NCBI RefSeq assembly: GCF_964244045.1
Contig: NZ_CAXTHK010000004.1
Location: 36,731 to 100,730 of the forward strand
Reading direction: 5' to 3'
Length of the DNA: 64,000 nucleotides
Origin: an uncultured Jatrophihabitans sp.
GTDB lineage: Bacteria > Actinomycetota > Actinomycetes > Mycobacteriales > Jatrophihabitantaceae
Under the pieces are notes generated by a model. That model ran no database searches. It was not told the origin of the DNA and was given only the letters and a program-made list of their open reading frames with translations. Made by a program: the position numbers and the translations under genes. This document shows, piece after piece, positions 5,877-63,577 of the stretch (within the stretch, counting starts at the first letter, position 1; each line of letters opens with the position of its first letter).

Positions 5877-6803
5877 TCAGGGTTGCCAGTTGAAGTCGGT
5901 GCAGACGTAGCGGTTGTCCGCGGTCCGGACGAACGTGATGGTCAGGACGCCGCCGGACTTCTTGGCAACCATGCGGTACCGGGCGACTGCACCGGCGCCG
6001 TCGCCGCCGGTCAGGTCGGTGCCGGGAATGCCGAAGGACTCGCCGTACAGGACGGTCAGCCGGGGCCGGACCGTCTCTGTGGCGCACGCAGCGAAGATGT
6101 CCTTGTTGAAGTCCGAGGGCTCCTCGCCGGGCTGGACGAACTCGACCGCCGTGGTCAGGTGGATGACCGCACTCGAGGCCTTCTCGCCGACCGGGCAGTT
6201 CAGGTCCTTGTAACCGGTTGACGGTGTCGCGGACGTCCCGGACGTCGGCAACGCGGTTCCCGAACCGCCGGTGTCGCTCGTGGCGCCCGTCGCAGTGCTG
6301 GCCGTCGACTCGCCCGAGAAATCGCCGCTCGCCGAACCGTTGCTGCTCGGGAACCCGGTGACATTCGTTGCGCTGCCGCCACCTGGCGAAGGTGAACCCG
6401 AACCGCCGGCCTGCTTCTTGTCGTCGCCGCCGGAGGTCAGGACGACGATCAGCGTGACGACCAGAGCCACGACGATCACTGCGCTGGCAATGATCCAGAC
6501 GAGCTTGTTGTTGTCGCCACCGGACTTCGGCGGTCCGCCGTACCCACCACCGCCATAGGGCGGCTGCTGGCTGTAACCCTGCTGGCCGTAGGGCTGTTGT
6601 CCGTAGGGCTGTTGTCCGTAGGGCTGCTGGCCGTAGGGCTGTTGTCCGTAGGGCTGCTGTCCGTACGGCTGCTGGCCGTAGGGCTGCTGTCCGTACGGCT
6701 GCTGTCCGTACGGCTGCTGGCCGTAGTCGCCGGGCTGCTCGGGCTGGCCCTGATTCGGATCGGGCTGCGGGTTCCAGCCGGGCTGCTCGGGCGGCTGAGA
6801 CAT
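5877..6803 (-). CDS. Single-pass membrane protein with N-terminal GQQPY repeats and Ser/Gly-rich linker
   Basis: ATG at 6803 (MSQPPEQ), 9x GQQPY, hydrophobic [23 protein letters not shown]-terminal domain with 3 Cys. Confidence 0.8.
6588..6722 (-). repeat. 15-bp coding tandem repeat x9 (GQQPY)
   Basis: Nine consecutive gta(g/c)ggctg(c/t)tg(g/t)cc units on the + strand. Confidence 0.95.
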
Positions 6804-6937: not shown

Positions 6938-7969
6938 ATGGTGATCGTGATGGCTCCCGGCGCGACCGACAATGACATCGACACGGTGGTCGCCCACATC
7001 GAGGCCCATGACGGACAGGCGTTCGTCAGCCGCGGAGTGATGCGCACGATCATCGGCGTTGTCGGCACCGAGGCCGTGCTCGAGACACTCGGCGCCGAGG
7101 GGTTGCCCGGCGTCGCCGAGACGATGCGCATCACCGCGCCGTACAAGCTGGTCTCGGCGCAGAATCACGCGAAGCGCACCACGATCCGCGTCGGCGGGGT
7201 GCCCATCGGTCCTGACACGTTCACCCTCATCGCCGGCCCGTGCGCCGTCGAGACACCCGAGCAGACGCTCGAGTCGGCGCGGATGGCCAAGCGTGCCGGC
7301 GCGACCCTGCTGCGCGGCGGCGCCTACAAGCCGCGCACCTCGCCCTACGCGTTCCAGGGTCTCGGCGTCGACGGCCTGCGCATCCTGGCCGAGGTCCGCG
7401 ACGAGGTCGGATTGCCGATCGTCACAGAGGTGGTCGATGCGACGAGTGTCGACGTCGTCTGCCAGTACGCCGACATGCTGCAGATCGGCACCCGCAACAT
7501 GCAGAACTTCGGGCTGCTGCAGGCCGTCGGCTCGTCCGGCAAGCCCGTCATGCTCAAACGCGGACTGACCGCCACCTACGAGGAATGGCTGATGGCCGCC
7601 GAGTACATCGCCCAACGCGGCAATCTCGACATCGTGCTGTGCGAGCGAGGCGTTCGCTCCTTCGAGCCGGCCATCCGCAACATGCTCGACGTCTCCGCGG
7701 TGCCGATGATGCAGCGGCTCTCGCACCTGCCCGTCATCGTCGACCCGTCACACGCGGCCGGTCGCCGCGACCTCGTCGTCCCGCTGGCCCGCGCCGGCAT
7801 GGCCGCCGGCGCTGACGGCGTCATGGTCGACGTCCACCCCACCCCCGAGACCGCGCTGTGCGACGGCGCCCAGGCACTGTTCGGCGACGTCCTCGACGAG
7901 CTGGCCAAGGCCGTCGTCACGATCCCGCCGGCCCTGGGCCGAACCTCGGCCGCCAATCTGGCCAGCTGA
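6938..7969 (+). CDS. aroF: DAHP synthase class I-beta with N-terminal regulatory domain
   Basis: IAGPCAVE, LRGGAYKPRTSPYAFQGLG, QIGTRNMQNF, LCERG, DPSH motifs; ATG at 6938 (MVIVM) is the likely start. Confidence 0.92.
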   Translation: MVIVMAPGATDNDIDTVVAHIEAHDGQAFVSRGVMRTIIGVVGTEAVLETLGAEGLPGVAETMRITAPYKLVSAQNHAKRTTIRVGGVPIGPDTFTLIAGPCAVETPEQTLESARMAKRAGATLLRGGAYKPRTSPYAFQGLGVDGLRILAEVRDEVGLPIVTEVVDATSVDVVCQYADMLQIGTRNMQNFGLLQAVGSSGKPVMLKRGLTATYEEWLMAAEYIAQRGNLDIVLCERGVRSFEPAIRNMLDVSAVPMMQRLSHLPVIVDPSHAAGRRDLVVPLARAGMAAGADGVMVDVHPTPETALCDGAQALFGDVLDELAKAVVTIPPALGRTSAANLAS

Positions 7970-7981
7970 CCTCGCCCTCGC

Positions 7982-8032
7982 TGATCAACAGCGCCGAAAC
8001 GTCGTCGGACGACGTTTCGGCGCTGTTGATCA
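7982..8032. repeat. 51-bp perfect palindrome, REP-like (copy 1)
   Basis: TGATCAACAGCGCCGAAACGTCGTC-G-GACGACGTTTCGGCGCTGTTGATCA between convergent genes; second copy at 58826-58876. Confidence 0.93.
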
Positions 8033-8884
8033 CTGCTGTGGCGGTCCCCAGCCCTGTTGCGGACCGGCCTGCGGAGGACCGCCCGGCTGTGGACCACTCT
8101 GGCCGTACCCGCCGGGCTGTGGACCAGGCTGGCCGTAACCGCCCGGCTGCGGGCCACCCGGCGGGGGGCCGTAACCCGGGGGCGGGTAGTTGGCCGGCGG
8201 GCCGCCGTAACCACCACCGCCGTAGGGGTTGGCCAGCTCCTTCTTGTGCCGGCTGCGCTTGATCAGTCCGACGATGAGCAAGACGATCGCGGCGATCAGC
8301 AGCAGGACGCCACCGACGATCAGCAAGCCGCCCGCCGCGGTGCCTTTCGCGATGTCGCGGCCGAAGGCGAGCTGCGCCCCGGAGGGCAAGGTCTCCTCGG
8401 GCTGCACCAGGATCCGGTAGGTGCCCTCGGTCTTGGCGGTGAACTGCAGGGCGGCCGCTCCCTTGTGCCCACCGGTGTTGTAGGTCAACTTGTCGACCTT
8501 GTCGTCGCTGCGATTGCCGTAGGACTTGAAGGTGACTGCTTTGCCGCTCGGATCAGAGATCGCGACTCGGATGTTCGGGATCCGGTCGATGTCGCTGCTG
8601 ACGTCGCTGGCTTCGTAGTAGCCGACCCACTTACCGGTGCCGTCGATCTTGATCATGCCCGTACCGCTGGAGATGGACACGCGCTGGAAGTCCTCGACCT
8701 TGCCGAGTGACTTCTTGGCCAGCACGACACCGCCGATGACGAACAGAATCACGGCGAGGACGAAGAAGATGATCGCCAGCCGCAGCGGGGTGCGACCGCG
8801 CAGTTTCGGCTTGCCGGAGCCCTGGTCGCCGGGGTTGCCCGGGCCCGGGTAGGCGGGCTGGTTGGGGTATGCCGAGTAGGTCAT
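8030..8884 (-). CDS. Membrane protein, two TM segments, Gly/Pro/Gln/Tyr-rich C-terminus
   Basis: 284-aa ORF with typical codon use; GQPGPQPGGY repeats. Confidence 0.75.
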   Translation of the reverse strand: MTYSAYPNQPAYPGPGNPGDQGSGKPKLRGRTPLRLAIIFFVLAVILFVIGGVVLAKKSLGKVEDFQRVSISSGTGMIKIDGTGKWVGYYEASDVSSDIDRIPNIRVAISDPSGKAVTFKSYGNRSDDKVDKLTYNTGGHKGAAALQFTAKTEGTYRILVQPEETLPSGAQLAFGRDIAKGTAAGGLLIVGGVLLLIAAIVLLIVGLIKRSRHKKELANPYGGGGYGGPPANYPPPGYGPPPGGPQPGGYGQPGPQPGGYGQSGPQPGGPPQAGPQQGWGPPQQ

Positions 8885-8947: not shown

Positions 8948-12374
<3,427 letters not shown>

Positions 12375-20874: not shown

Positions 20875-21882
20875 GTGCGTACTCGACTGCTGGCAACGAC
20901 GCTCGGCCTGGCCGCGGTCACGGTGCTCGCCGGCTGCTCCGGATCAAGCGGTAGATCGAAGACGTTCGCGGCGGGCACGACGCCGGCAAGCACGACAGCT
21001 GTCGCCCCGGCACCGTCCGCCGCGTCGTCGAGCGCCGCCACGCCAACCAGCGCGACGTTCCCGTCAGCGGCGGCGACACCGGCCCCGCAGTACTACGTCT
21101 CCCTCGGCGACTCCTATGCCGCCGGCTATCAGGGCATCGGACGCAACGAGGGCCGGACCACAACGAACGGCTTCGCGTACCAGGTCGTCACGAAAGCCAA
21201 GGCGAAGGGTTACGACTACCGGCTCGTCAATTTCGGGTGCGCCGGAGCGACCACGCAGACGATGCTCTCGAGCGCAGGCTGCCGGCGTGGCTTCACCGGC
21301 CCCGGCGCCCCGCAGTACTCGACTACCCAGACCGCAGCCGCAGTGGCATTCATGAAGGCGCATCGCGGGCATATCGCGCTCGTTACCGTGTCGATCGGCG
21401 GCAACGACGTCATCCCCTGCGGCGTGCGCAGCGATGCCCTCAGCTGCCTGACGACCAGCATCGGGAAGGCCCGCACCAACCTGAACTCGATCCTGCAGCA
21501 GGTGCGCGCCGCGGCCGGATCGAGCACCCGCATCGTCGGCACCACCTACCCCGACGTCCTGCTCGGCAACCTGCTGTCCAAGGACGCAAGCCTGCGCTCG
21601 CTGGCCTCGCTCTCGGTCACCGCCTTCAAGTCCCTGATCAACCCGCAGCTGCAGCAGGCCTACCAGGCGGTCGGCGGCCGCTTCGTCGACGTCACGGCAG
21701 CATTCGGCAGCTACGGTTCGCTGACACAGACCACGTCGTTGCCCCCGTACGGCAACATCCCGGTGCCGACGGCCAAGATCTGCTCGCTGACGTTCTACTG
21801 CGCGTACCAGGACATCCACCCGCGCACGCCCGGTTACGCGATCATCGCCGACCTGGTCACCGCCACCCTGCCCCGTCAGTGA
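20875..21882 (+). CDS. Secreted SGNH/GDSL hydrolase lipoprotein
   Basis: Lipobox LAGC, GDSY, IGGND, DIHP. Confidence 0.88.
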   Translation: MRTRLLATTLGLAAVTVLAGCSGSSGRSKTFAAGTTPASTTAVAPAPSAASSSAATPTSATFPSAAATPAPQYYVSLGDSYAAGYQGIGRNEGRTTTNGFAYQVVTKAKAKGYDYRLVNFGCAGATTQTMLSSAGCRRGFTGPGAPQYSTTQTAAAVAFMKAHRGHIALVTVSIGGNDVIPCGVRSDALSCLTTSIGKARTNLNSILQQVRAAAGSSTRIVGTTYPDVLLGNLLSKDASLRSLASLSVTAFKSLINPQLQQAYQAVGGRFVDVTAAFGSYGSLTQTTSLPPYGNIPVPTAKICSLTFYCAYQDIHPRTPGYAIIADLVTATLPRQ

Positions 21883-22138
21883 GCGACGCCTGCGGAGCGA
21901 ACGGGCGGCATGGCGCCTCTGGCGGCCCGAACGGAGTGAGGGCGTGAGCGACGCCTGCGGAGCGAACCGGCGACATGGCGCCTTCGGCGGCCCGAACGGA
22001 GTGAGGGCGTGAGCGACGCCTGCGGAGCGAACCGGCGGCATGGCGCCTTCGGCGGCCCGAACGGAGTGAGGGCGTGAGCGACGCCTGCGGAGCGAACCGG
22101 CGGCATGGCGCCTTCGGCGGCCCGAACGGAGTGAGGGC
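21879..22138 (+). repeat. Tandem array of four 65-bp MIRU-like units, each a 22-aa coupled mini-ORF
   Basis: Units start at 21879, 21944, 22009, 22074; GTGAGCGACGCCTGCGGAGCGAAC...CCCGAACGGAGTGAGGGC; each TGA overlaps the next GTG. Confidence 0.95.
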
Positions 22139-22205
22139 GTGACGTCCGCCTATTCACGGTTGGCGCGGGCCGGCACGCTCTCTGGCCCTGGCCGTCGACA
22201 CGGCG

Positions 22206-24008: not shown

Positions 24009-24840
24009 GTCCGGCCGTCGACCGTGTGCACCGGCACGACGCCGGCGAACGTGCCGGTCACGAACGCCTCGTCGGCGCTATAGACCTCGGTGAGGCTGAA
24101 CGACTTCTCCCGCGCCGGGATGCCGGCGTCGCGCACACCCGCAGGACATTGCCGCGGGTGATGCCGCCCAGGCAGTACATGCCGCTCGACGTCCACACCT
24201 CGTCGCCGCGCACGACGAAGAAGTGCGTCGAGTTGCAGGTGGCGACGAACCCGTGCGGGTCGAGCATGAGCGCCTCGTCGGCACCGGCGGTGTAGGCCTG
24301 GATGCACGCGGTGATGTCGTTGAGCTTGCTGTGCGCGTTCAGCTTGGGGTCGAGGGCGACGCGCGGCGCACGTGCACGGTGAACAACGACAGGCCGCGTT
24401 CGACGGTGGCCGGCAGCGGGTCCTTCCACTCGGCGATGATCACAACGGTGGCCGGGCCGGCCGTCATCCGCGGGTCCTGGTGCGGCGTCGACTTCGGGCC
24501 GCGGGTGACCATCAACCGGATGTGCGCGCCGTCGCCGGTCATTGCATTGGCCCGCAGCGTGTTGTCGATGCGCTCGGCCATGTCGTCGCGGGTCATCCCG
24601 ATGTCGAGCATGATCGCCGCCGCGCCCTCCCACAGCCGGTCGAAATGCAGGTCGAGGAACGCGGGCCGGCCGTCGGCCACCCGCAGGCCCCTCCGACACG
24701 CCGTCGCCCAGCACGAAGCCCGCGTCGAAGACGCTGACCACGGCCCGCTCGCGCGAAACGAGCTCGCCGTTGACCTTGATCAGGATCGTGGCGTTGCGCG
24801 GGTCGTGGAGGAAGTCGTGGGTGCCGTGAGCTGCAGTCAT
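24009..24840 (-). pseudogene. Class IV aminotransferase, three frameshifts, truncated C-terminus
   Basis: VSVFDAGFVLGDGV / HFDRLW..RLMVTRG / KLNAHSKLND..DEALMLD / YSADEAFVTGT are spread over three frames. Confidence 0.82.
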
Positions 24841-24925
24841 GCGACGGCGCAGCCGGAGCAGGTCACATGGACATGGCCTTTGGCGGCCGAAGCGAAGCGG
24901 AGGTCGATCATCCTGTCATCATGGC

Positions 24926-25666
24926 GTGGTGTCGGCCCGCTGTTGCGTCATCGCGTCGGCAGTGCTTGTCGCCGCGCTCAGCGCTGGCTGCTCCTCGACC
25001 CCGCAGCCTGCCAGGATCACGACCGCCGCCTCGTCGTCGCCCGCGACCGTCGCGACCCGATCAATGACCAAACGGGCGAAACCCGCACCGTCGACCGTGG
25101 TGTCGGCCCGGGCACGACGAGCCGGGCTCGTCGAGATCCACAGCGTCGTGCCCGACGCGATCGTCGATCTGCGGTACACGACGAGCAACAACTTCACCCA
25201 CGTCCGGCTGTATCCGAAGTCGGCGCGCTGCCTGGTGCACACCAGCATGCGCGCCGGCCTGCGTACTGCGGCGAAGCGGTTGCGGGCGCAGGGATACCGC
25301 CTGGTGTTCTGGGACTGCTACCGCCCGCACTCGGTCCAGGTACGGATGTTCCACATCGTGTCGAACCCGGAGTTCGTGGCCCGGCCGGGGCCGTACGCGC
25401 GCAGCCACGAGGCCGGCCGCTCGGTCGACGTCACCCTGTCGAAGGGCGAGCACCTGGTGAGCATGGGCACCGGCTTCGACAACTTCACCGCGCGGGCCCA
25501 TGCGTACGCCACCAGCGGGGTGAGCGTGACGGCGCGAGCACACCGCCGGGTGTTGCGGATGGCGATGGCCGCCGGTGGCCTCACCGTCTACGTCGGCGAG
25601 TGGTGGCACTTCGACGGCCCCGGCGCGGACACGCCGCGGCCGATCCTCGGTGCACCGCTGCACTGA
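24926..25666 (+). CDS. M15D D-Ala-D-Ala dipeptidase-like lipoprotein (DdpX/VanX family)
   Basis: Lipobox SAGC, DLRY..NNF, WDCYRP, SHEAGRSVD, EWWHF. Confidence 0.87.
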   Translation: MVSARCCVIASAVLVAALSAGCSSTPQPARITTAASSSPATVATRSMTKRAKPAPSTVVSARARRAGLVEIHSVVPDAIVDLRYTTSNNFTHVRLYPKSARCLVHTSMRAGLRTAAKRLRAQGYRLVFWDCYRPHSVQVRMFHIVSNPEFVARPGPYARSHEAGRSVDVTLSKGEHLVSMGTGFDNFTARAHAYATSGVSVTARAHRRVLRMAMAAGGLTVYVGEWWHFDGPGADTPRPILGAPLH

Positions 25667-33503: not shown

Positions 33504-33851
33504 TCAGCCCTTCGCCGGATCGTTGTGGGGGGTCTCGTCGTCGGGCACGCCTCGCTCCGCGCGCGGGCGCGGCCTCGGCCTGTCCTTCGACGGCGGGTGC
33601 GCTGCGTCGCCTGCCGCCCCCGGGGTCGCCGAGTCGATCAGCAGCCGCACTGCGGTGCTGATCGCGGCCCCGGCCTCAGCCATCCGTTCGGTGATCTCGG
33701 GGTGCTCCCCGCGCAACACGCTGGCCAGCTGGCACAGCGGGCACCACTGGCACTCCGGGCCGCCGTGCCCGGACGGTGGGGCGGGCAGGGCTTGCTTTGC
33801 CCAGTCCTGCAGGGCAGCGAAGATCGACGTCGCCGGGTCGGGCTCGCTCAT
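33504..33851 (-). CDS. Conserved hypothetical protein (SCO2127/Rv2183c-like)
   Basis: ECQWCPLCQ motif; position upstream of glk. Confidence 0.72.
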   Translation of the reverse strand: MSEPDPATSIFAALQDWAKQALPAPPSGHGGPECQWCPLCQLASVLRGEHPEITERMAEAGAAISTAVRLLIDSATPGAAGDAAHPPSKDRPRPRPRAERGVPDDETPHNDPAKG

Positions 33852-33928
33852 TGGCCTACCCTCGCTTCGCTCCGTTCGACCGCCCAAGGCCTTCTGCGCC
33901 CATGATTCGCTCCCCAAGCGTCGCTCAT
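33852..33928 (-). repeat. 77-bp MIRU-like unit encoding 26-aa coupled mini-ORF MSDAWGANHGRRRPWAVERSEARVGQ
   Basis: ATG overlaps the SRPBCC TGA; its own TGA (33850-33848) overlaps the next ATG; 5' end matches the 65- and 101-bp units. Confidence 0.88.
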
Positions 33929-40231: not shown

Positions 40232-40398
40232 TCTCCTTCTTCCTCGACCGCGTACCGGGTTAGCTGACGGGTTCGGGCTGGAAGAGGCCCTACGACACGA
40301 CGCACCTACGCTCTGCGAGCGCAGATACTGCGAGTCGATTCACCCCGGGACGGATTGGGTCCCCGGTTTGCCCCGGGTTGGGCACCACGCGAAGCGGT
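40232..40398 (-). ncRNA. c-di-AMP (ydaO/yuaA) riboswitch
   Basis: Minus strand reads GGGGACCCAAT..GGGGTGAATC..GTAGGG..CTTCC.GCCCGAACCCGTCAGCTAACCCGGTA..GGAAGAAGGAG directly upstream of the NlpC/P60 start. Confidence 0.88.
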
Positions 40399-40572
40399 AC
40401 ACAACCCAGGAATTGGTGCAATTCGGCGGGATCTAACCGGCGACGGCCTGGCGACCGACAAGGAACCGGGTAGGTCTCGGAAAGGTTACGACGCCGCGGG
40501 TTTCCTGTGCAACGCGCCCCCCGCTTTGGGCGCGTCGCACATCGTTCATCTGCCGTTTTCCGGGCGGCCGCG

Positions 40573-45874: not shown

Positions 45875-46498
45875 GTGACCTCGACCGCCACAGCAGCAAA
45901 CTTCGAGTCCAGCAGGGTGCACTCGCTGACGCGTCCGAACGTGGTCAGCGTCGGCACCATCGTCTGGCTGTCGAGCGAGCTGATGTTCTTCGCCGGCCTG
46001 TTCGCGATGTACTTCACTGTCCGGTCCGTGCACGCCACGGACTGGCCGATGCACCTGCCCGACGGCGAACCCATCAAGCTGAGCGTGGCCTACGCGCTGC
46101 CGTTCACGGTGATACTCGTCGCCTCGAGCTTCACCTGCCAGTGGGGTGTGTTCGCGGCCGAGAAGGGCGACGTCTACAAGCTGCGTCGCTGGTTCATCCT
46201 GACGTTCTTCCTGGGTCTTATCTTCGTGCTCGGGCAGGCCAACGAGTACCGGATGCAGTACGCCGACGGCAACACCATCAAGGCCACCGGATACGGCTCC
46301 GTCTTCTTCCTCGCGACCGGCTTCCACGGCCTGCACGTCATCGGTGGCCTCATCGCGTTCATCCTGTTCCTGATCCGGACCGCCCTGGGCAAGTTCACAC
46401 CCGCCCAGGCCACCGCGGCGATCGTCGTGTCGTACTACTGGCATTTCGTCGACGTCGTGTGGGTCGGGCTGTTCGCGGTGATCTACCTCATCCAATGA
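45875..46498 (+). CDS. ctaE: Cytochrome c oxidase subunit III
   Basis: [27 protein letters not shown]; leaderless CATACT-N6-GTG. Confidence 0.95.
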
Positions 46499-46569
46499 GC
46501 GCCGTACTCGCGCCGAGGCGCAGCCTGGGCTTGTGGACGCCGGGGACATCGACGGAAGGACAGTTGTGA
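46495..46569 (+). other. 24-aa coupled mini-ORF bridging ctaE and qcrC ([24 protein letters not shown])
   Basis: ATG 46495 overlaps the ctaE TGA; TGA 46567-46569 overlaps in-frame qcrC GTG 46566, which is preceded by GGAAGGA. Confidence 0.65.
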
Positions 46570-47489
46570 ACGACGACATTGAGGCCGGCGAGCTGGACGC
46601 TGCCGAGCTCGGCTTCGAGCCGGCTGTCTCGGCCACCGGCGCCCCCACCGCCAGGACCAGCGGCGCGACAGCTCGCGCAACCCGGTCACCACGCCGTCGC
46701 CGACGCGCACGCTCGGGTGGCGGCCTGCGGCGTCGCCTGGGCGCCGCAGCCGTCCTGATCGCCGCGCTCTGCGCGATGGGTGGCTCCTACGCGATGTTTG
46801 CCGCGTCCTCGGGCGCCGCGGGCACTGGGTCGAGCACGGCGGACATCGAGGCGGGCCGCCAGCTCTACCAGGTCGGCTGCATAACCTGCCATGGCGCCAA
46901 CCTCGACGGCGTCAAGGGCAACGGGCCCTCGATCATCGGCTCCGGCAGCGCGTCGGTCTACTTCCAGGTCTCCACCGGCCGCATGCCCCTGGCTCGCCAG
47001 GGGGCGTATGCGCCGCGCAAGGAAGCGAAGTACAACGAAACGCAGACCGAGCAGCTCGGCGCCTACATCCAGTCCGTCGGCGGCGGCCCCACCGTTCCGG
47101 TGGGCAAGCTCGAGTCCTCGTCGGCGCAGATCGGCAAGGGCGGGGAGCTGTTCCGGCTCAACTGCGCGTCCTGCCACGGCGCAACCTTCCACGGCGCCCC
47201 GCTGTCGGGCGGCAAGATCGCACCGTCGCTGCTGGACGCGAACGACAAGCAGATCTACACCGCGATGCTGTCCGGGCCCGAGAACATGCCGGTGTTCAGC
47301 GACAACACCATCACCCCGGCCCAGAAGAAGCAGATCATCGGCTACATCCAGACGCTGAAGGCGTCGCAGGACCCAGGCGGCAACGGCATCGCCCGCATCG
47401 GCCCGGTGTCCGAAGCCATCGTGATCTGGGTGGGCGGGGTCGGCGCGCTGATGATCTCGATCCTCTGGATTGGAGCACGCGCGCGATGA
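46566..47489 (+). CDS. qcrC: Cytochrome bc1 (bcc) diheme cytochrome c subunit
   Basis: CITCH and CASCH heme motifs; start placed at the RBS-preceded GTG 46566 (longest ORF begins 46533). Confidence 0.93.
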   Translation: MNDDIEAGELDAAELGFEPAVSATGAPTARTSGATARATRSPRRRRRARSGGGLRRRLGAAAVLIAALCAMGGSYAMFAASSGAAGTGSSTADIEAGRQLYQVGCITCHGANLDGVKGNGPSIIGSGSASVYFQVSTGRMPLARQGAYAPRKEAKYNETQTEQLGAYIQSVGGGPTVPVGKLESSSAQIGKGGELFRLNCASCHGATFHGAPLSGGKIAPSLLDANDKQIYTAMLSGPENMPVFSDNTITPAQKKQIIGYIQTLKASQDPGGNGIARIGPVSEAIVIWVGGVGALMISILWIGARAR

Positions 47490-47687
47490 GCGACGCTTGC
47501 GGAGCGAACAGTGTGATCTCGGCGGCGAAGCCGCCTATCGGGGCGAGGACGGACCCGAGCGCAGCGAGTGGTCCAGAGGAGTCCCGATGAGCGACGCTTG
47601 CGGAGCGAACAGTGTGATCTCGGCGGCGAAGCCGCCTATCGGGGCGAGGACGGACCCGAGCGCAGCGAGTGGTCCAGAGGAGTCCCG
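47486..47687 (+). repeat. Two tandem 101-bp MIRU-like units, each a 34-aa coupled mini-ORF MSDACGANSVISAAKPPIGARTDPSAASGPEESR
   Basis: Identical units at 47486 and 47587; ATGA overlaps at 47486, 47587 and 47688; GAGGAG SD before each next ATG. Confidence 0.95.
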
Positions 47688-48833
47688 ATGAGCACGACTC
47701 ACGAGCCGCACACGACGGCAGGTTCGCATGTGCAGCCGCCTGAGCCGCTGACCGCGGACGAGCTGCGGGAGATGTCCACCGAGGACGCGATGCTTGCCGG
47801 CACCGAGGCCGACGGCGTCCACATCGTCCACCGGCGCAACCGCTTCCCGGTCCCCGGAACGAAGGCCGAGAAGCGCGTCGAGCGGGCCGTCGCCCTGACC
47901 TTCTTGATCTCCGCGCTGGGCGGTGTGGGCTTCATCGTCGCGTTCGTTGCGCTGCCGTACCGCTGGCACCTGCCCGGAACGCCGCAGAACTTCCGCTTCT
48001 ACACACCGGCGCTCGGTGCGCTGCTCGCGATCATGCTGATCTTCATGGGCGTGGGCCTCGTGCTGTGGGCCAAGTGGCTCATGCCCGAGGAGGAGGCGGT
48101 CCAGGACCGCCACGACGACCCCACCACCGAGCAGGACAAGCTAATGATCGAGGCCACGCTGCTCAGCGGCCTCGAGGACACCGGCCTGCCCCGGCGCGGC
48201 CTGATCCTCAAGACGCTCGGTCTGGCCGGTGGCGCGATGCTCACCGTGCCCCTGGTCGCCCTCGTCGGCGGGATGATCAAGAACCCCGGCAACAAGTTCT
48301 TCCACACCCAGTTCCGTCCGAACAAGAAGCTGTTCCCGCCGAACGGGCACGTGCCGATCGTCGACGTCGACTTCCGGCGCATCGGGCCCGACGACCTCGA
48401 GCCCGGCGGCCTGCTGACCGTGTTCCCCGGCATCCACGAGGACGACTCCGACGGGTTCAACGGCGTCACCGACGCCGCCTCTCCGACGTTGTTGATCCGC
48501 TTGCACCCGGGTCAGAAGGTCCAGGCCCGTAAGGGCCAGGCCGGGTTCGGTTGGCCGACAGCCAACCCCGAGTACGTCGCGTTCTCCAAGATCTGCACGC
48601 ACGCTGGTTGCCCGGCCTCGCTGTACGAGCAGCAGACCTCCCGGCTGCTGTGCCCGTGCCACCAATCGCAGTTCGAGGTGCTCAAGGACGCCAAGCCAGT
48701 TTTCGGTCCGGCATCTCGCAGCCTTCCCAAGCTCCCACTTGGCGTGGAAATGGGGGACGATGGACGTCAGTACTTCGTCGCCCTCGACGACTATCACGAA
48801 GCGATCGGTCCCGCCTTCTGGAACCGGCCGTGA
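47688..48833 (+). CDS. qcrA: Rieske iron-sulfur subunit
   Basis: CTHAGC and CPCHQS motifs, three TM segments; start at ATG 47688 after the repeats. Confidence 0.94.
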   Translation: MSTTHEPHTTAGSHVQPPEPLTADELREMSTEDAMLAGTEADGVHIVHRRNRFPVPGTKAEKRVERAVALTFLISALGGVGFIVAFVALPYRWHLPGTPQNFRFYTPALGALLAIMLIFMGVGLVLWAKWLMPEEEAVQDRHDDPTTEQDKLMIEATLLSGLEDTGLPRRGLILKTLGLAGGAMLTVPLVALVGGMIKNPGNKFFHTQFRPNKKLFPPNGHVPIVDVDFRRIGPDDLEPGGLLTVFPGIHEDDSDGFNGVTDAASPTLLIRLHPGQKVQARKGQAGFGWPTANPEYVAFSKICTHAGCPASLYEQQTSRLLCPCHQSQFEVLKDAKPVFGPASRSLPKLPLGVEMGDDGRQYFVALDDYHEAIGPAFWNRP

Positions 48834-48904
48834 GCACCACTTCACACCAGGCCCCAACCCAGCGAGCCGCCAGTAATGACTGCGTGTCTGTGAGGACATC
48901 ATGA
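48830..48904 (+). other. 24-aa coupled mini-ORF bridging qcrA and qcrB ([24 protein letters not shown])
   Basis: GTG 48830 overlaps the qcrA TGA; TGA 48902-48904 overlaps the qcrB ATG 48901. Confidence 0.65.
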
Positions 48905-50544
48905 CCGCCACCAGATCACCGGTAGCCCGGCGCTCCAACGAGCCGCGAACGCCGCAGGGCAAGGCCGGCAAGTTCATGGACGACCGGCTGACCATGGCCG
49001 GGCCCATGCGCAAGCAGCTGAACAAGGTCTTCCCGGACCACTGGTCGTTCATGATGGGCGAGATCGCGCTGTACTCGTTCGTCATCCTGTTGCTGAGCGG
49101 CACATACCTGACGTTCTTCTACGACCCGTCCATGGCAGAGGTCGTCTACCACGGCCGATACGTCCCGCTGCGCGACATCACCATGTCCCGTGCCTATGCC
49201 TCGACGCTCGACATCACGTTCGACGTACGCGGCGGCCTGATCGTCCGCCAGATCCACCACTGGGCCGCGCTGATGTTCCTGGCCGCGATGATGGTGCACA
49301 TGTTCCGGGTGTTCTTCACCGGGGCGTTCCGCAAGCCGCGTGAGCTGAACTGGCTGATCGGTATCGGGCTGCTCGCACTCGGCATCATCGAGGGTTTCGC
49401 CGGCTACTCACTGCCCGACGACCTGCTGTCCGGTACGGGCCTGCGTATCGCCGACGCGATCATGCTGTCGATCCCGGTCATCGGCACCTGGGTGTCGTTC
49501 CTGCTCTTCGGCGGGCCCTTCCCCGGTCACGAGATCATCGGCCGGCTCTACATCGCCCACGTCCTGCTGATCCCGGCCATCCTGGCCGCGTTGATCGGTG
49601 CCCACCTCGCACTCGTCGTGCGCCAGAAGCACACCCAGTTCGCCGGTCACGGGCACACCGAGGACACCGTCAGCGGCGAGCGGGTGTTCCCCGTCTACGC
49701 GGCCAAGGCCGGCGGTTTCTTCTTCGTCGTCTTCGGCATCACCTGTGCACTCGGCGGTCTGGCACAGATCAACCCGGTGTGGTTGTTCGGCCCGTATGAG
49801 GCGTCCCAGGTGTCTTCGGGTTCACAGCCCGACTGGTACATGGGCTTCCTGGACGGTTCGACGCGACTGTTCCCGTCCTGGGAGATCCGCAACTTCGGGT
49901 ACACGATCCCGGCCGTGTTCTGGCCGACGGTGGTGCTGCCGGGCATCTTGTTCACGCTCGCGGCTGCGTACCCGTTCATCGAGGCCAAGATGACAGGTGA
50001 CAAGGCCCGGCACCACCTGCTGCAGCGCCCCCGTGACGTTCCGGTTCGCACCGGCCTGGGCTGCATGGCCATTGCGTTCTACGTGGTCCTATATCTGTCA
50101 GGCTCGAACGACATCATCGCCAAGGCGTTCGACATCTCGCTGAACGCCATGACGTGGGCCGGCCGCATCGGCCTGCTCGTCATCCCGCCGCTGGCTTACC
50201 TGTTCGCCTACCGGATCTGCCTGGGCCTGCAGCGCCACGACCGCGAGGTGCTCGAGCACGGCATCGAGACCGGGATCATCAAGGTCCTGCCGACCGGTGA
50301 GTTCATCGAGGTTCACCAGCCCCTGGGGCCGGTCGACGAACACGGTCACGGCCAGCTGTCCTACAGCGGCACCCCGGTGCCCAAGCGGATGAGCCAGGTC
50401 GGCGGTGCCTCGCCATTGCGGCACATCCGCGGGTTCCTCTACCCCGTCAAGGAGAAGCCCGAGATCCAGGCCGCTATCGACGCGATCGAGGCTGCCGAGC
50501 TGGCAAGGCTCCAGGGCGAAGACCGCAAACAGCTCACCGACTGA
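48901..50544 (+). CDS. qcrB: Cytochrome b subunit
   Basis: [27 protein letters not shown]. Confidence 0.95.
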
Positions 50545-50563: not shown

Positions 50564-50597
50564 CGGGGCCGCGACCAGTTACGGGGTCGCGGCCCCG
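50564..50597. terminator. Stem-loop after qcrB
   Basis: CGGGGCCGCGACC / GGTCGCGGCCCCG, 13-bp stem with 8-nt loop; no U-tract. Confidence 0.55.
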
Positions 50598-50630: not shown

Positions 50631-50846
50631 GTCGAGTGGTGAGTTACGCGTCGAGTGGTGCGCTATAACCCACCACTCGCCCGATAACCCACCACTCGAC
50701 CGACGGGGTCGACGGGATCGCGCCCGGGCACCCGGCCTGCGGCCACGACGTGACACCAGCGCAGCGGTCGTCGGCCGTCGAGTGGTGCGTTACGCATCGA
50801 GTGGTGCGTTATAACCCACCACTCGCCTGATAACGCACCACTCGAC
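50631..50846. repeat. Two 70-bp composite palindromic elements (50631-50700, 50777-50846)
   Basis: Each has two direct TCGAGTGGTG(C/A)G(T/C)TA subunits followed by two inverted TAAC(C/G)CACCACTCG subunits; between convergent qcrB and ctaF. Confidence 0.9.
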
Positions 50847-57173: not shown

Positions 57174-58808
57174 ATGATCACGAGCACCATGCAGGACGAT
57201 TTCCAGCTCACGACCACCGCGATCCTGCAGCACGGCGCGCAGGTGTACCCCGACAGCGAGGTCGTCACCTGGACGGGCGGCGGCGCCCGGCGCGCCACGT
57301 TCACCGAGATCGCGGCCAACGCCAATCGCTTCGCCGCCGCGCTCACCGAGCTGGGCGTCCAACCAGGGGACGCCATCGGCACCTTCTGCTGGAACACCGC
57401 CGAGCACGTCGAGGCCTACTACGCCATCCCGGGCATGGGCGCGGTCGTGCACACCCTCAACATCCGGCTCACGGCAGAGCAGGTCGCGCAGATCGTCGAG
57501 CACGCCGGCGACCGGATGATCATCGTCGACGATTCCCTCGTGCCGCTGCTGGCTGCCGTTGCCCCGCAGCTGTCGAGCGTCGAGGCATACATCGTGGTGG
57601 GCCAGGCCGACACCTCAGCCCTCGAAAACCACGCCACAGTCCACCGCTACGCCGACCTGCTGGCGGCGCAGGAGCCGACGTTCGACTGGCCCGACATCGA
57701 CGAGAAGTCGGCCGCGGCCATGTGTTACACCAGCGGCACGACGGGCGACCCGAAGGGCGTCGTCTACTCGCACCGCTCGACGTACCTGCATGCGTTGGCC
57801 ACGCTCGCCGCTGGCGTCACGGGCTTCACCGAGGCCGATCGCATCCTGACCTTTGTGCCGATGTTCCACGTCAATGCATGGGGAATCCCGTTCGGCGCCT
57901 TCCTCGGCGGCTCGACGCTGCACCTGCCGGCGCAGTTCATGACGCCCGATCAGGTATGCGCGTTCATCGCGGCCGAGCGCTCGACGGTCGCCTCGGCGGT
58001 GCCGACCATCTGGGGCGGCATCATGCAGTACGGCCGCGAGCACGAGATCGACCTGTCGTCGCTGCGGATGGGCACCTCCGGCGGCGCTGCGATCCCCCGC
58101 TCGCTGATGGCGGGTTTCGAGCAGACCTACGGCGTGCGCATCATCCAGGGCTGGGGCATGACCGAGACCTCCCCGGTGGCCGGCATGGCCTGGCCGCCGC
58201 CCGAGGTCGAACCAGGCGCTCCCGACGAGCTGGACTGGCGGCTCAAGTCGGGGCGCGTCGTGCCCGGCGTGCAGATGCGCATCGTCTCCGAAGACGGCGA
58301 CGTGCTGCCGTGGGACGGCACAGCGGTCGGCGAGATCGAGGTCCGCGGGCCGTGGATCACCGGCTCGTACCACGCCACCGACGTCCCCGAGAAGTTCGAC
58401 GACGGCTGGCTGCGCACCGGCGACATCGGCACCATCGACCACCGCGGCTTCTTCCTGATCACCGACCGCAGCAAGGACGTGATCAAGTCCGGCGGCGAGT
58501 GGATCTCCTCCGTCGAGCTCGAGAACCTGCTGGCCGCGAGCCCCGACGTCGCCGAGGCGGCGGTCATTGGCATCCCGGACGAGAAGTGGACAGAGCGTCC
58601 GCTCGCGGCCGTCGTGCTGCGCTCGGGCGCCGCCGCCTCCCCCGAACAGCTCGCGCACTTCCTCGACGGCAAGGTCGCGGCGTGGCAGATCCCCGAAAAC
58701 TGGACGTTCATCGACGAGGTGCCCAAGACGACGGTCGGCAAGTTCGACAAGAAGGTGCTGCGCTCGCAGTTCGCCGACGGCGAGCTCAAGGTCGAACGCA
58801 GCCGCTGA
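57174..58808 (+). CDS. Acyl-CoA ligase (FadD14/AlkK-type)
   Basis: CYTSGTTGDPKG, VPMFHVNAWG, QGWGMTETSP, KDVIKSGGEWISS, GKFDKK. Confidence 0.9.
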   Translation: MITSTMQDDFQLTTTAILQHGAQVYPDSEVVTWTGGGARRATFTEIAANANRFAAALTELGVQPGDAIGTFCWNTAEHVEAYYAIPGMGAVVHTLNIRLTAEQVAQIVEHAGDRMIIVDDSLVPLLAAVAPQLSSVEAYIVVGQADTSALENHATVHRYADLLAAQEPTFDWPDIDEKSAAAMCYTSGTTGDPKGVVYSHRSTYLHALATLAAGVTGFTEADRILTFVPMFHVNAWGIPFGAFLGGSTLHLPAQFMTPDQVCAFIAAERSTVASAVPTIWGGIMQYGREHEIDLSSLRMGTSGGAAIPRSLMAGFEQTYGVRIIQGWGMTETSPVAGMAWPPPEVEPGAPDELDWRLKSGRVVPGVQMRIVSEDGDVLPWDGTAVGEIEVRGPWITGSYHATDVPEKFDDGWLRTGDIGTIDHRGFFLITDRSKDVIKSGGEWISSVELENLLAASPDVAEAAVIGIPDEKWTERPLAAVVLRSGAAASPEQLAHFLDGKVAAWQIPENWTFIDEVPKTTVGKFDKKVLRSQFADGELKVERSR

Positions 58809-58825
58809 GCCGGCTCCCCTCTTGC

Positions 58826-58876
58826 TGATCAACAGCGCCGAAACGTCGTCCTACGACGTTTCGGCGCTGTTGATCA
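58826..58876. repeat. 51-bp palindrome, REP-like (copy 2)
   Basis: TGATCAACAGCGCCGAAACGTCGTC-C-TACGACGTTTCGGCGCTGTTGATCA; differs from copy 1 at two central bases. Confidence 0.93.
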
Positions 58877-59530
58877 CGGTTGGGGGTAGCCGTTGAGGTA
58901 GGCCAGCACGGCCAGGACCCGGCGGTTGTCGTCCTCGGACGGCGGTAGGCCGAGCTTGCCGAAGATGCTGTTGGTGTGTTTGCTGACCGCCTTCTCGCTG
59001 ACCGTCATCTTCGCGGCGATGGCAGCGTTCGACCGTCCCTCGGCCATCGCCTCGAGCACCTCACGCTCCCGCGGCGTCAGGGTGGCCAGCGGCTCGTCGC
59101 CGGCCCGGCGGCTCAGCAGCTGGGCAACGACGTCGGGGTCCATGGCCGTGCCGCCGGCGGCCACCTGACGCACCGCGTCGACGAACTGCCGCACGTTGAA
59201 CACCCGGTCCTTGAGCAGGTAACCCACCCCACCCGAGCGATCGGCGAGCAGTTCCCGCGCGTAGAGCTGCTCGACGTATTGCGACAGCACGAGCACCGGC
59301 AACCCGGGCACCTGTCGGCGCGCCTCGATGGCAGCGCGCAACCCCTCGTCGGTGAAGGTCGGCGGCAGGCGTACGTCGACGACCGCGATGTCGGGTCGGT
59401 GGGTGACCAGCGCTCGCAGCAGCGACGGCCCGTTGTCGACGGCCTCGACGACCTCGCAGTCGTTGGCCTCGAGCAGCCGGATCAGCCCGTCGCGGAGGAG
59501 GGCAAGGTCTTCGGCGAGGACGACGCGCAC
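58874..59530 (-). CDS. NarL/LuxR-family response regulator
   Basis: AED, VVDVRLPP, LTPREREVL..GRSNAAIA, NRRVLAVLAYL. Confidence 0.92.
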   Translation of the reverse strand: MRVVLAEDLALLRDGLIRLLEANDCEVVEAVDNGPSLLRALVTHRPDIAVVDVRLPPTFTDEGLRAAIEARRQVPGLPVLVLSQYVEQLYARELLADRSGGVGYLLKDRVFNVRQFVDAVRQVAAGGTAMDPDVVAQLLSRRAGDEPLATLTPREREVLEAMAEGRSNAAIAAKMTVSEKAVSKHTNSIFGKLGLPPSEDDNRRVLAVLAYLNGYPQP

Positions 59531-63320: not shown

Positions 63321-63353
63321 TCCCGCGGACCGCGACGAGACACTGGCCTGTTC

Positions 63354-63446
63354 CGCCCTGGCAGGCATTCCGACTGGCCACTCACGAGCGGCATCACGGC
63401 CGCGGGTCAGTGCCGGAGTCTCACCGGGCTTCCCCTACCAGGACAG
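63354..63446 (-). ncRNA. Cobalamin riboswitch
   Basis: Minus strand CCTGGTAGGGGAAGCCCGGTGAGACTCCGGCACTGACCCGCGGCCGTGA...CAGTCGGAATGCCTGCCAGG; B12-box motifs and closing P1 (CCTGG/CCAGG). Confidence 0.87.
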
Positions 63447-63577
63447 TTTTTGCTGAGTGCCGCGGCTGTTCCCGCGGCGGCGGAAACGTATCCCTGCGTG
63501 GCAACGACGGTCAACGTGGGGTGACGCAGTCCTCCGGGCTCACCGCTCGGTTCGTGCGGTCCGGGCATACTGGCTCG

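Follow-up and report, generated by a model that had tools for sequence, protein, structure and literature searches.

In the stretch of DNA analysed here (64,000 nucleotides with a G+C content of 69.7%, referred to as the window throughout), the respiratory genes ctaE, qcrC, qcrA and qcrB follow each other on the forward strand, and every junction between them is bridged by mini open reading frames (mini-ORFs). The sequence and its table of open reading frames (ORFs) reveal a chain of eight ORFs over 4670 nt (45875-50544), in which all seven junctions from 46495 to 48904 are 4-nt RTGA overlaps of a stop and a start codon. The chain begins with ctaE (cytochrome c oxidase subunit III, 45875-46498; Pfam COX3, E=4e-26), which ends in CAATGA and whose stop TGA (46496-46498) overlaps the ATG at 46495 of mini-ORF 1 (24 aa, 46495-46569). 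This mini-ORF spans the ctaE-qcrC spacer and ends in TTGTGA, where the GTG at 46566 lies in the frame of qcrC (di-haem cytochrome c, 46566-47489; two cytochrome c domains in Pfam) and is preceded at 5 nt by a Shine-Dalgarno (SD)-like GGAAGGA (46554-46560) that is kept in relatives. Mini-ORF 2a (34 aa, 47486-47590) opens in the ATGA of the qcrC stop and closes in the next ATGA, where the identical mini-ORF 2b (34 aa, 47587-47691) opens in turn, to close in the ATGA of the start of qcrA (Rieske subunit, 47688-48833; Pfam QcrA_N, E=9e-64, plus Rieske). Finally, mini-ORF 3 (24 aa, 48830-48904), with a GTG start, fills the qcrA-qcrB spacer up to qcrB (cytochrome b, 48901-50544; Pfam cytochrome b). 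The coupled spacers of 71, 2x101 and 71 bp described in the first-pass annotation match the sequence to the base. All four mini-ORFs open with RTGAGC, where the overlap itself imposes RTGA and AGC belongs to the common A-initial codons of this 70% G+C genome, and their peptides are hydrophilic and lack a membrane-spanning stretch. A sequence scan showed no promoter- or terminator-like sites within the operon, and a strong terminator-like hairpin lies 3′ of qcrB at 50564-50597.

Altogether, the spacers are probably relay-preserving insertions, which would keep ribosomes flowing through the operon, and not accessory subunits. For the central 2x101-bp spacer, sequence comparison lets us hold with very high confidence that it is a relay element similar to MIRUs (the interspersed repetitive units of mycobacteria), a link that was absent from the first-pass annotation and that explains the design of the relay.

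The tandem 101-bp unit and its repeat family

The qcrC-qcrA spacer consists of two 101-bp units (47486-47586 and 47587-47687, forward strand) that are 100% identical, and Tandem Repeats Finder (TRF) reports them at 47484-47693 with a period of 101, 2.1 copies and a 100% match. The head of the repeat, RTGAGCGACGCYTGCGGAGCGAA, is present at three further sites in the window, and the first 23 nt of the unit (TGAGCGACGCYTGCGGAGCGAAC) occur 8 times where shuffled sequences give an expectation of 0, so chance does not account for the 101-bp pair at all. Moreover, a profile of the 101/104-bp class, built only from independent metagenome units, matches 47487-47590 and 47588-47691 over its full length with E=7e-16, and other metagenome-only profiles detect units at 11325-11393, 21879-22142 and 33848-33928. 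No Rfam family matched at the qcr spacers or at the repeat sites, and the 77-bp consensus found no match in a plasmid collection.

These other sites have quite different neighbours. A single 77-bp unit on the reverse strand (33848-33928, 26-codon ORF, profile E=1e-18) forms a complete relay from an SRPBCC/polyketide-cyclase-like gene to a 115-aa gene. Also on the reverse strand, a profile match reveals a single 65-bp unit (11325-11393, 22-codon ORF) that ends in the GTGA start of the class-II DAHP synthase gene aroG (11328 down to 9955); here only a downstream partner exists, and no upstream gene overlaps the start of the unit. The fourth site is a forward-strand array of four tandem 65-bp units (21879-22142; TRF and profile, 96-97% identity) with 22-codon ORFs, coupled at its 5′ end to the GTGA of a GDSL-lipase gene stop. 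At all four sites in the window the units keep the orientation of their co-directional neighbours, with coupling at both ends at 47486-47691 and 33848-33928, only at the 5′ end at 21879-22142 and only at the 3′ end at 11325-11393. Starting from every called gene of the window, a search for such chains gave relays into a real gene only at the three qcr junctions and at the 33928 locus, plus one probably spurious match at 8033; this search skipped the 11393 and 21879 loci, as their upstream genes lie outside the filtered gene calls. A weak match to the 53-bp class profile (E=0.0013) was also seen at 24875-24908, at the start of the gene 24830-25666, and is maybe a degraded unit.

The repeat head was found in at least 120 soil-metagenome stretches, all of them in high-G+C contigs (mean 70%). 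The tallies given here and below for metagenomes cover the 125 sites among the matches listed from a head-motif scan of metagenome contigs. At 112 of them an A or G precedes the TGA of the head and forms an RTG start overlapping it. The 13 remaining heads read CTGA, with no start codon (L127, L104, L165, L195 and others), and include a 4x30-nt in-frame array (L127, 1957-2068) and sites preceded by very long open frames, and the head motif may occur within coding sequence as well. As long spurious ORFs are common at 70% G+C, a relay was scored complete only when its final landing frame showed the G+C periodicity of coding sequence by codon position (98/125 sites passed before this test was adopted). 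Complete relays into a coding frame through at least one mini-ORF were found at 67 of the 112 start-bearing sites; another 10 led straight into a coding frame, 10 landed in a non-coding one, 14 broke and 11 were too short. Considering only the judgeable sites with a start codon and mini-ORFs, 67/87 relays were complete, 6 landed elsewhere and 14 broke.

The repeat units are 3n+2 bp long, with sizes that cluster at 26, 32, 53, 65, 74, 77, 80, 92, 101 and 104 bp, and they carry a GGAG-type SD near their 3′ end. Head-to-head spacing in arrays, a measure independent of ORF calls, is 2 modulo 3 in 10 intervals, 0 in 7 and 1 in 2, one of these last two being two relay units in series. The encoded peptide does not behave as a conserved product. 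In the variable part of 68 distinct units, the G+C content at codon positions 1/2/3 is flat (0.70/0.70/0.68), while the qcr genes show 0.55-0.68/0.42-0.57/0.90-0.92; the head is strongly conserved at the nucleotide level whatever the frame; and several 80-bp units are cut into 9+18 codons by an internal ATGA, which restores the relay after a frame change and leaves an altered peptide.

A detailed view of the consensus fold of the 101/104-bp class (seven unit sequences) reveals an outer helix, ATCGGG/CCCGAT, which in unit 1 pairs 47537-47542 with 47583-47588 and is found again in unit 2, 101 nt further on. An inner hairpin (47552-47574) and a GAGGAG SD-like motif are enclosed by this helix, whose 3′ arm reaches into the next start codon and includes its first two bases; a central hairpin, GGCGGC-GAA-GCCGCC (47521-47535), lies upstream. 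Compensatory changes affect 4 of the 6 pairs of the outer helix, 86% of its cells are paired compared with 31-40% when the partners are slid, and the covariation score of the class was reached by 0/500 shuffles. In the 77/80-bp class, a helix ending one base before the RTGA covaries as well (the column pair 50:80 is C-G in 8 sequences and U-A in 7), with 97% of cells paired against 3-50% for slid partners. Three sequence classes that are unrelated to one another have a 3′ helix touching or overlapping the following start codon. Terminal inverted repeats are not evident: head and tail of the units are not complementary, and the predicted helices are internal. In the conserved helix, the end of the unit is base-paired with the opening bases of the following start codon, from which we infer that access to the next ORF would hinge on ribosomes translating the mini-ORF.

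Junctions in related genomes and the two 71-bp spacers

The QcrA of the window is 87% identical to a protein from an uncultured Jatrophihabitans metagenome-assembled genome (MAG), and the host is thus not a Mycobacterium. The next relatives are MAGs of Jatrophihabitantaceae and 'Pseudonocardiales', and the QcrA proteins of Micromonospora, Pseudonocardia, Blastococcus, Rhodococcus, Gordonia and others are about 40-45% identical. In 80 loci of relatives, the qcrC>qcrA junction is a direct RTGA overlap in 59, bridged by mini-ORFs in 19 and neither in 2; for qcrA>qcrB, the figures are 73, 3 and 4. As the direct overlap is found in most relatives, it is the ancestral state, and the spacers that the window carries at both junctions are insertions. 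The site of the central insertion can be read directly. An empty ATGA is kept at qcrC>qcrA in L003, L004, L006, L008 and L020, this last one reading GCG-ATGA-GCACGACC, and the filled site of the window reads GCG-ATGA-[2x101]-ATGA-GCACGACT. Filling has thus left a 4-nt duplication, with ATGA on both sides of the insert compared with the bare ATGA/GTGA of 59/80 relatives.

The same junction has received different inserts in the Jatrophihabitans-like lineages: 26 bp in L002, 35 bp in L001, 41 bp in L005, 62 bp in L007 and 2x101 bp in the window. All five are 3n+2 long and open, and keep both overlaps. The exact head motif is absent from the 80 loci of relatives, where a profile search found only one family unit (L020:11737-11806). 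Farther away, an orthologous 71-bp, 24-codon unit occupies qcrC>qcrA in all 11 Micromonospora species loci fetched (L025, L034, L035, L037, L042, L052, L057, L066, L069, L070 and L080, at ~5930-6004 in most). Its last 23 nt (CCCGTAGCGAGGTGACGGCATGA) are invariant, and its hairpin shows one compensatory pair and several G-C/G-U switches; evidently, the unit was already there when the genus began to diversify and has been kept since. Three Blastococcus loci have a 77-bp unit at this junction, and a Micromonosporaceae MAG (L036) has an 80-bp one that is clearly family-like (z=5.4), while the units of Blastococcus, L007 and Micromonospora show weak to moderate similarity to the family or to one another (z=2.3-4.5).

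The two 71-bp spacers have another history. They bear no significant similarity to each other (z=1.7), and the six class profiles (nhmmer) give them 0 and 1.5 bits, no better than shuffles. The first-pass idea of a cassette origin was attached to the wrong spacers, the demonstrable cassette being the 101-bp pair. In global alignment the ctaE-qcrC spacer scores z=3.5 against the 77-bp consensus (2/1000 shuffles), a likeness that is missing for its L001 orthologue and for the 80-bp class, and the qcrA-qcrB spacer shows no similarity to the family. Among the relatives' loci, the qcrA-qcrB spacer occurs only in the window and in its closest relative, L001. A 3-nt indel separates both versions and their 5′ part is about half identical, but the last 27 nt (GACYGCGTGTCTGTGAGGACATCATGA), holding the start and the SD of qcrB (GAGGA, 48892-48896, forward strand), are almost identical. 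Its distribution points to a younger, lineage-specific insertion into an ancestrally overlapping junction.

On the other hand, nearly all relatives have a spacer at ctaE-qcrC, in which both the SD (GGAAGGA, GAAGGGA or AAAGGAC) and the context of the qcrC start (RTG-A/G-NN-GAC-GA) are conserved. The GTG at 46533, which had been put forward as another start for qcrC, lacks both an SD and this context and falls where the spacer is not conserved, which makes 46566 the likely start. The spacer of mini-ORF 1 is homologous to that of L001, from which it differs by indels of +4 and -7 nt (net -3). The relay is present in only 9 loci over all 80. A direct ctaE>qcrC overlap, which had seemed to exist in 7 loci, was rejected, as these are in-frame spacers with a conserved SD and a start further down. 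The four closest genomes (window, L001, L003 and L004) do keep the relay despite stop-to-start distances of 70, 67, 106 and 43 nt, a suggestive but weak pattern. The junction looks like an old, length-variable, SD-bearing intergenic region where the relay, which may partly be due to chance, is kept in the nearest clade only. Altogether, the expectation that relatives would conserve the frame holds for the qcrC>qcrA inserts but not for ctaE>qcrC, where the relay is not conserved across the wider family. The more general claim that the relay is preserved while the sequence drifts is borne out by the five inserts and by the indels between window and L001, which sum to multiples of 3.

The peptides of mini-ORFs 1 and 3 are about half identical between window and L001, compared with 81-91% for the flanking proteins, and what is conserved lies mostly towards the 3′ end of the nucleotide sequence, irrespective of codon position. 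Metagenome strains that are ~96-99% identical keep the length of both 71-bp spacers, and a more divergent metagenome contig carries a -3 and a +3 change within the qcrA-qcrB spacer. As to chance, dinucleotide shuffles with fixed ends and length stay open in 66% of cases for mini-ORF 1, 54% for mini-ORF 3 and 45% for the 101-bp unit. For each non-repeat spacer, the probability of a relay is about 0.2 (1/3 for the length class times the probability of being open), to be compared with an empirical rate of 9 relays among the 70 ctaE>qcrC spacers of relatives that are not in frame, and both 71-bp relays together are only moderately beyond chance, at about 0.02-0.04.

A translational relay and its alternatives

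From these data, the following history can be proposed. Direct 4-nt ATGA/GTGA overlaps would have joined qcrC to qcrA and qcrA to qcrB in the ancestor, until two identical MIRU-like units were inserted exactly in the qcrC/qcrA ATGA. Each unit provides a start overlapping the preceding stop, a length of 3n+2 bp, no in-frame stop, a GGAG-type SD and a re-created terminal RTGA. A ribosome ending on qcrC would thus re-initiate, translate 34 codons, terminate, re-initiate again and finally enter qcrA, with the mini-ORF peptide as a by-product of the relay, and the insertion between qcrA and qcrB would obey the same rule. As a mechanism, relay function appears the best supported, with translation, re-initiation and gating by helices as its putative steps.

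Several observations weigh against this proposal. Neither 71-bp spacer has a profile match, and the conserved SDs of qcrC and qcrB would allow de novo initiation without any relay. In the 17 nearest relatives with a ctaE>qcrC junction, 6 have the relay, 5 are in frame and 6 are neither, which puts the relay at chance level, as thirds are what random spacer length would give. About 23% of the judged metagenome sites are incomplete. Within the window, an Arg-rich ORF of 113 codons opens at the last GTGA of the 21879-22142 array, in a frame that is non-coding; the gene 3′ of the array is in the frame of 22143, with its start probably ~60 nt further, which leaves the relay incomplete. The helices might just as well act in mobilisation at the DNA level, and the 77-bp-class profile matches the MIRU array of Mycobacterium tuberculosis senX3-regX3 only weakly (7.5 bits, E=0.02, correct strand, across a unit boundary). 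Moreover, the public runs with window DNA include no RNA run, this DNA being carried by metagenome contigs only.

Some of these points would fit an alternative in which the ORFs are incidental: the spacers would be untranslated, each qcr gene would be initiated at its own SD, and openness would follow from rare stops and from the duplication of RTGA at insertion. Stop codons do have a frequency of only 1.4% per codon, the shuffles stay open with probabilities of 0.45-0.66, SDs are conserved 5′ of qcrC and qcrB, the ctaE>qcrC relay occurs in just 9/77 relatives and in about one third of the nearest ones, and the 21879 array misses the coding frame. Against this, five independent qcrC>qcrA inserts are 3n+2 and open, and length alone gives (1/3)^5, or ~0.004, before openness is counted. 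Incidental ORFs would not account either for the relays complete at 67/87 metagenome sites, for the internal ATGA that re-couples frameshifted units, or for window and L001 indels that total multiples of 3. The window scan is also telling, as gene-landing relays are restricted to the three qcr junctions and the 33928 repeat, with 11393 coupled to aroG and 21879 out of frame. We consider this alternative unlikely.

A second alternative places the role at the nucleic-acid level, with the units acting as mRNA stabilisers or processing sites, or as mobilised DNA hairpins of the repetitive extragenic palindromic (REP) or MITE (miniature inverted-repeat transposable element) type, for which the relay would merely be a condition of tolerance. 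Covarying helices, a head conserved irrespective of frame, CTGA heads lacking a start codon at 13/125 listed sites and tandem amplification would all agree with such a role. However, the strong rules of orientation and phase point to translation as the constraint, three sequence classes without relation to each other have their 3′ helix at or next to the following start codon, and terminal inverted repeats are not evident. We regard it as very improbable as a separate explanation; it is largely compatible with the translational relay and not exclusive of it.

Actinobacterial supercomplexes carry small extra subunits, and the co-encoded mini-ORF peptides would be made stoichiometrically, two points in favour of the suggestion that they are unrecognised accessory subunits, for instance of the bcc-aa3 supercomplex. 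This possibility can practically be discarded, since the 34-aa peptide is the product of a repeat that also adjoins unrelated genes (DAHP synthase, GDSL lipase, SRPBCC protein), lacks coding codon bias and is split in some units by internal ATGA motifs. The mini-ORF peptides are hydrophilic without a membrane span, mini-ORFs 1 and 3 diverge from L001 far more than the flanking proteins and in a frame-shifting manner, and the spacers are missing in 59 (qcrC/qcrA) and 73 (qcrA/qcrB) of the 80 relatives.

A relay of this kind explains the odd chain of eight ORFs by a known principle, and guards against annotating repeat peptides as respiratory subunits. For annotators, it suggests a simple rule, which is to look between genes for repeats of 3n+2 bp with RTGA at both ends. 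The relay modules and their covarying helices would also be a natural set for studies of termination-reinitiation in high-G+C bacteria, and the repeat arrays are candidate variable-number tandem repeat (VNTR) markers for uncultured Actinomycetota. More tentatively, and with doubts on our side, the units may belong to a superfamily of self-coupling relay mini-ORFs spread across soil Actinomycetota beyond Mycobacterium, which would share a head, a hairpin and an SD held in a helix closing on the next start. Such a superfamily would have colonised qcrC/qcrA repeatedly (Jatrophihabitans-like lineages, Micromonospora, Blastococcus and the Micromonosporaceae MAG), with copy number as an expression dial. 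If true, and as no re-initiation step is fully efficient, tandem copy number would be a heritable and quickly mutable control of QcrA/QcrB versus QcrC/CtaE output. No published description of a superfamily of this sort was found. The interest of the case is moderate, and rests on the breadth of the family, the covarying start-proximal helices and the recurrent use of qcrC/qcrA.

Other features of the window were recorded along the way. Downstream of qcrB, a cytochrome oxidase subunit IV gene (Pfam) lies on the opposite strand. Between the terminator-like hairpin of qcrB and this convergent ctaF-like gene there are two 70-nt palindromic copies (50631-50700 and 50777-50846, 93% identical; GTCGAGTGGTG...CACCACTCGAC), each an inverted repeat itself, which constitute a separate small repeat of the REP or MITE kind. 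The two copies of a 78-nt repeat at 7964-8041 and 58808-58885 are 85% identical and hold a 51-nt near-perfect palindrome (TGATCAACAGCGCCGAAACGTCGTC...GACGACGTTTCGGCGCTGTTGATCA); this repeat may be a terminator working in both directions, or else a further dispersed element. Two riboswitches score above the Rfam gathering threshold on the reverse strand, a c-di-AMP (ydaO) one at 40234-40401 (72 bits) and a cobalamin one at 63343-63457 (39.7 bits). Finally, about ten copies of a 15-nt tandem repeat (CTGCTGKCCGTAGGG) lie at 6547-6756, where the minus strand would encode PYGQQ-type repeats.

Comparison with known systems

Termination-reinitiation coupling (PMC12548453, where Huber et al. 2019 and 2023 are cited) resembles the present case in the -4 spacing found at every junction and in genes that encode subunits of one complex. 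As coupling is reported to fade beyond ~30 nt of spacing (PMC12548453), a translated bridge would be a way to span 70-200 nt. In contrast with the classical cases, which join two real genes, up to two consecutive non-functional mini-ORFs would act here as the relay. Short upstream ORFs and bicistronic designs (Shell et al. 2015 and Sun et al. 2021, as cited in PMC12548453) are also similar, in that they deliver ribosomes to an overlapping start and melt local structure. Those are single leaders at the 5′ end of the mRNA, whereas the qcr units are internal to an operon and, in the central spacer, belong to a repeat family; the 11325-11393 unit upstream of aroG is the one that resembles a ribosome-delivering leader ORF. 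REP sequences, bacterial interspersed mosaic elements (BIMEs) and MITEs (PMC3184786) share with the window units a short, G+C-rich, hairpin-forming and multi-copy nature and an intergenic location within operons. Unlike the window units, they follow no rule of phase or orientation with respect to flanking ORFs and usually contain no ORF, and the terminal inverted repeats of MITEs are missing here even though a 4-nt duplication is present.

The closest counterparts are the MIRUs, whose description originates with Supply et al. 1997 as summarised in PMC12548453 and PMC3184786. They are 40-100-bp repeats transcribed within operons, with tetranucleotide direct repeats at filled sites and ORFs overlapping the adjacent genes (PMC3184786), and their insertion at start codons couples the MIRU ORF with -4 spacing (PMC12548453; PMC3184786). 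In the senX3-regX3 junction of M. tuberculosis (CP012506.2, L201 1356-1590), the senX3 stop overlaps an ATG in ATGA, and two 77-bp units with 25-codon ORFs each are joined by TGATG; the third MIRU of this genome has 78 bp, not 77, and hence runs in frame into the regX3 ATG. The N-terminally extended RegX3 proteins of 245-347 aa called in databases probably reflect this in-frame 78-bp MIRU.

The window units are likewise short, dispersed and often tandem (four sites within the 64 kb, with units of 101, 65 and 77 bp), sit between co-directional genes in the same orientation, overlap the upstream stop with their own start (ATGA) and couple their end to the next start. They are also flanked by a tetranucleotide at filled sites, and the size classes of 77, 53 and 101 bp recur. 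The differences lie in the host, a Jatrophihabitans-like actinomycete and not a Mycobacterium, in the RTGA 4-nt overlaps at both ends compared with the 1-nt TGATG joins of M. tuberculosis, and in the consensus, as only the short motifs CGCTTGCGG and GAGCGTAGCGA are common, in the same order and in another phase relative to ATGA. Pairwise alignments of the family with M. tuberculosis MIRUs are not significant (z of 0.5-2.1 for three of four sequences and -0.8 for the fourth). Literature searches on elements of MIRU type in non-mycobacterial hosts, and on the translation of MIRUs, returned nothing relevant but were too few to demonstrate an absence, and those with the repeat motif strings gave irrelevant matches only. 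As known here from sequence, both kinds of unit have the same architecture: a short insertion that carries its own overlapping start, an open frame, an SD and an overlapping stop, so that coupling survives. This MIRU design is then not confined to mycobacteria, but abundant in soil actinomycetes, where the qcrC/qcrA junction has been struck in several genera.

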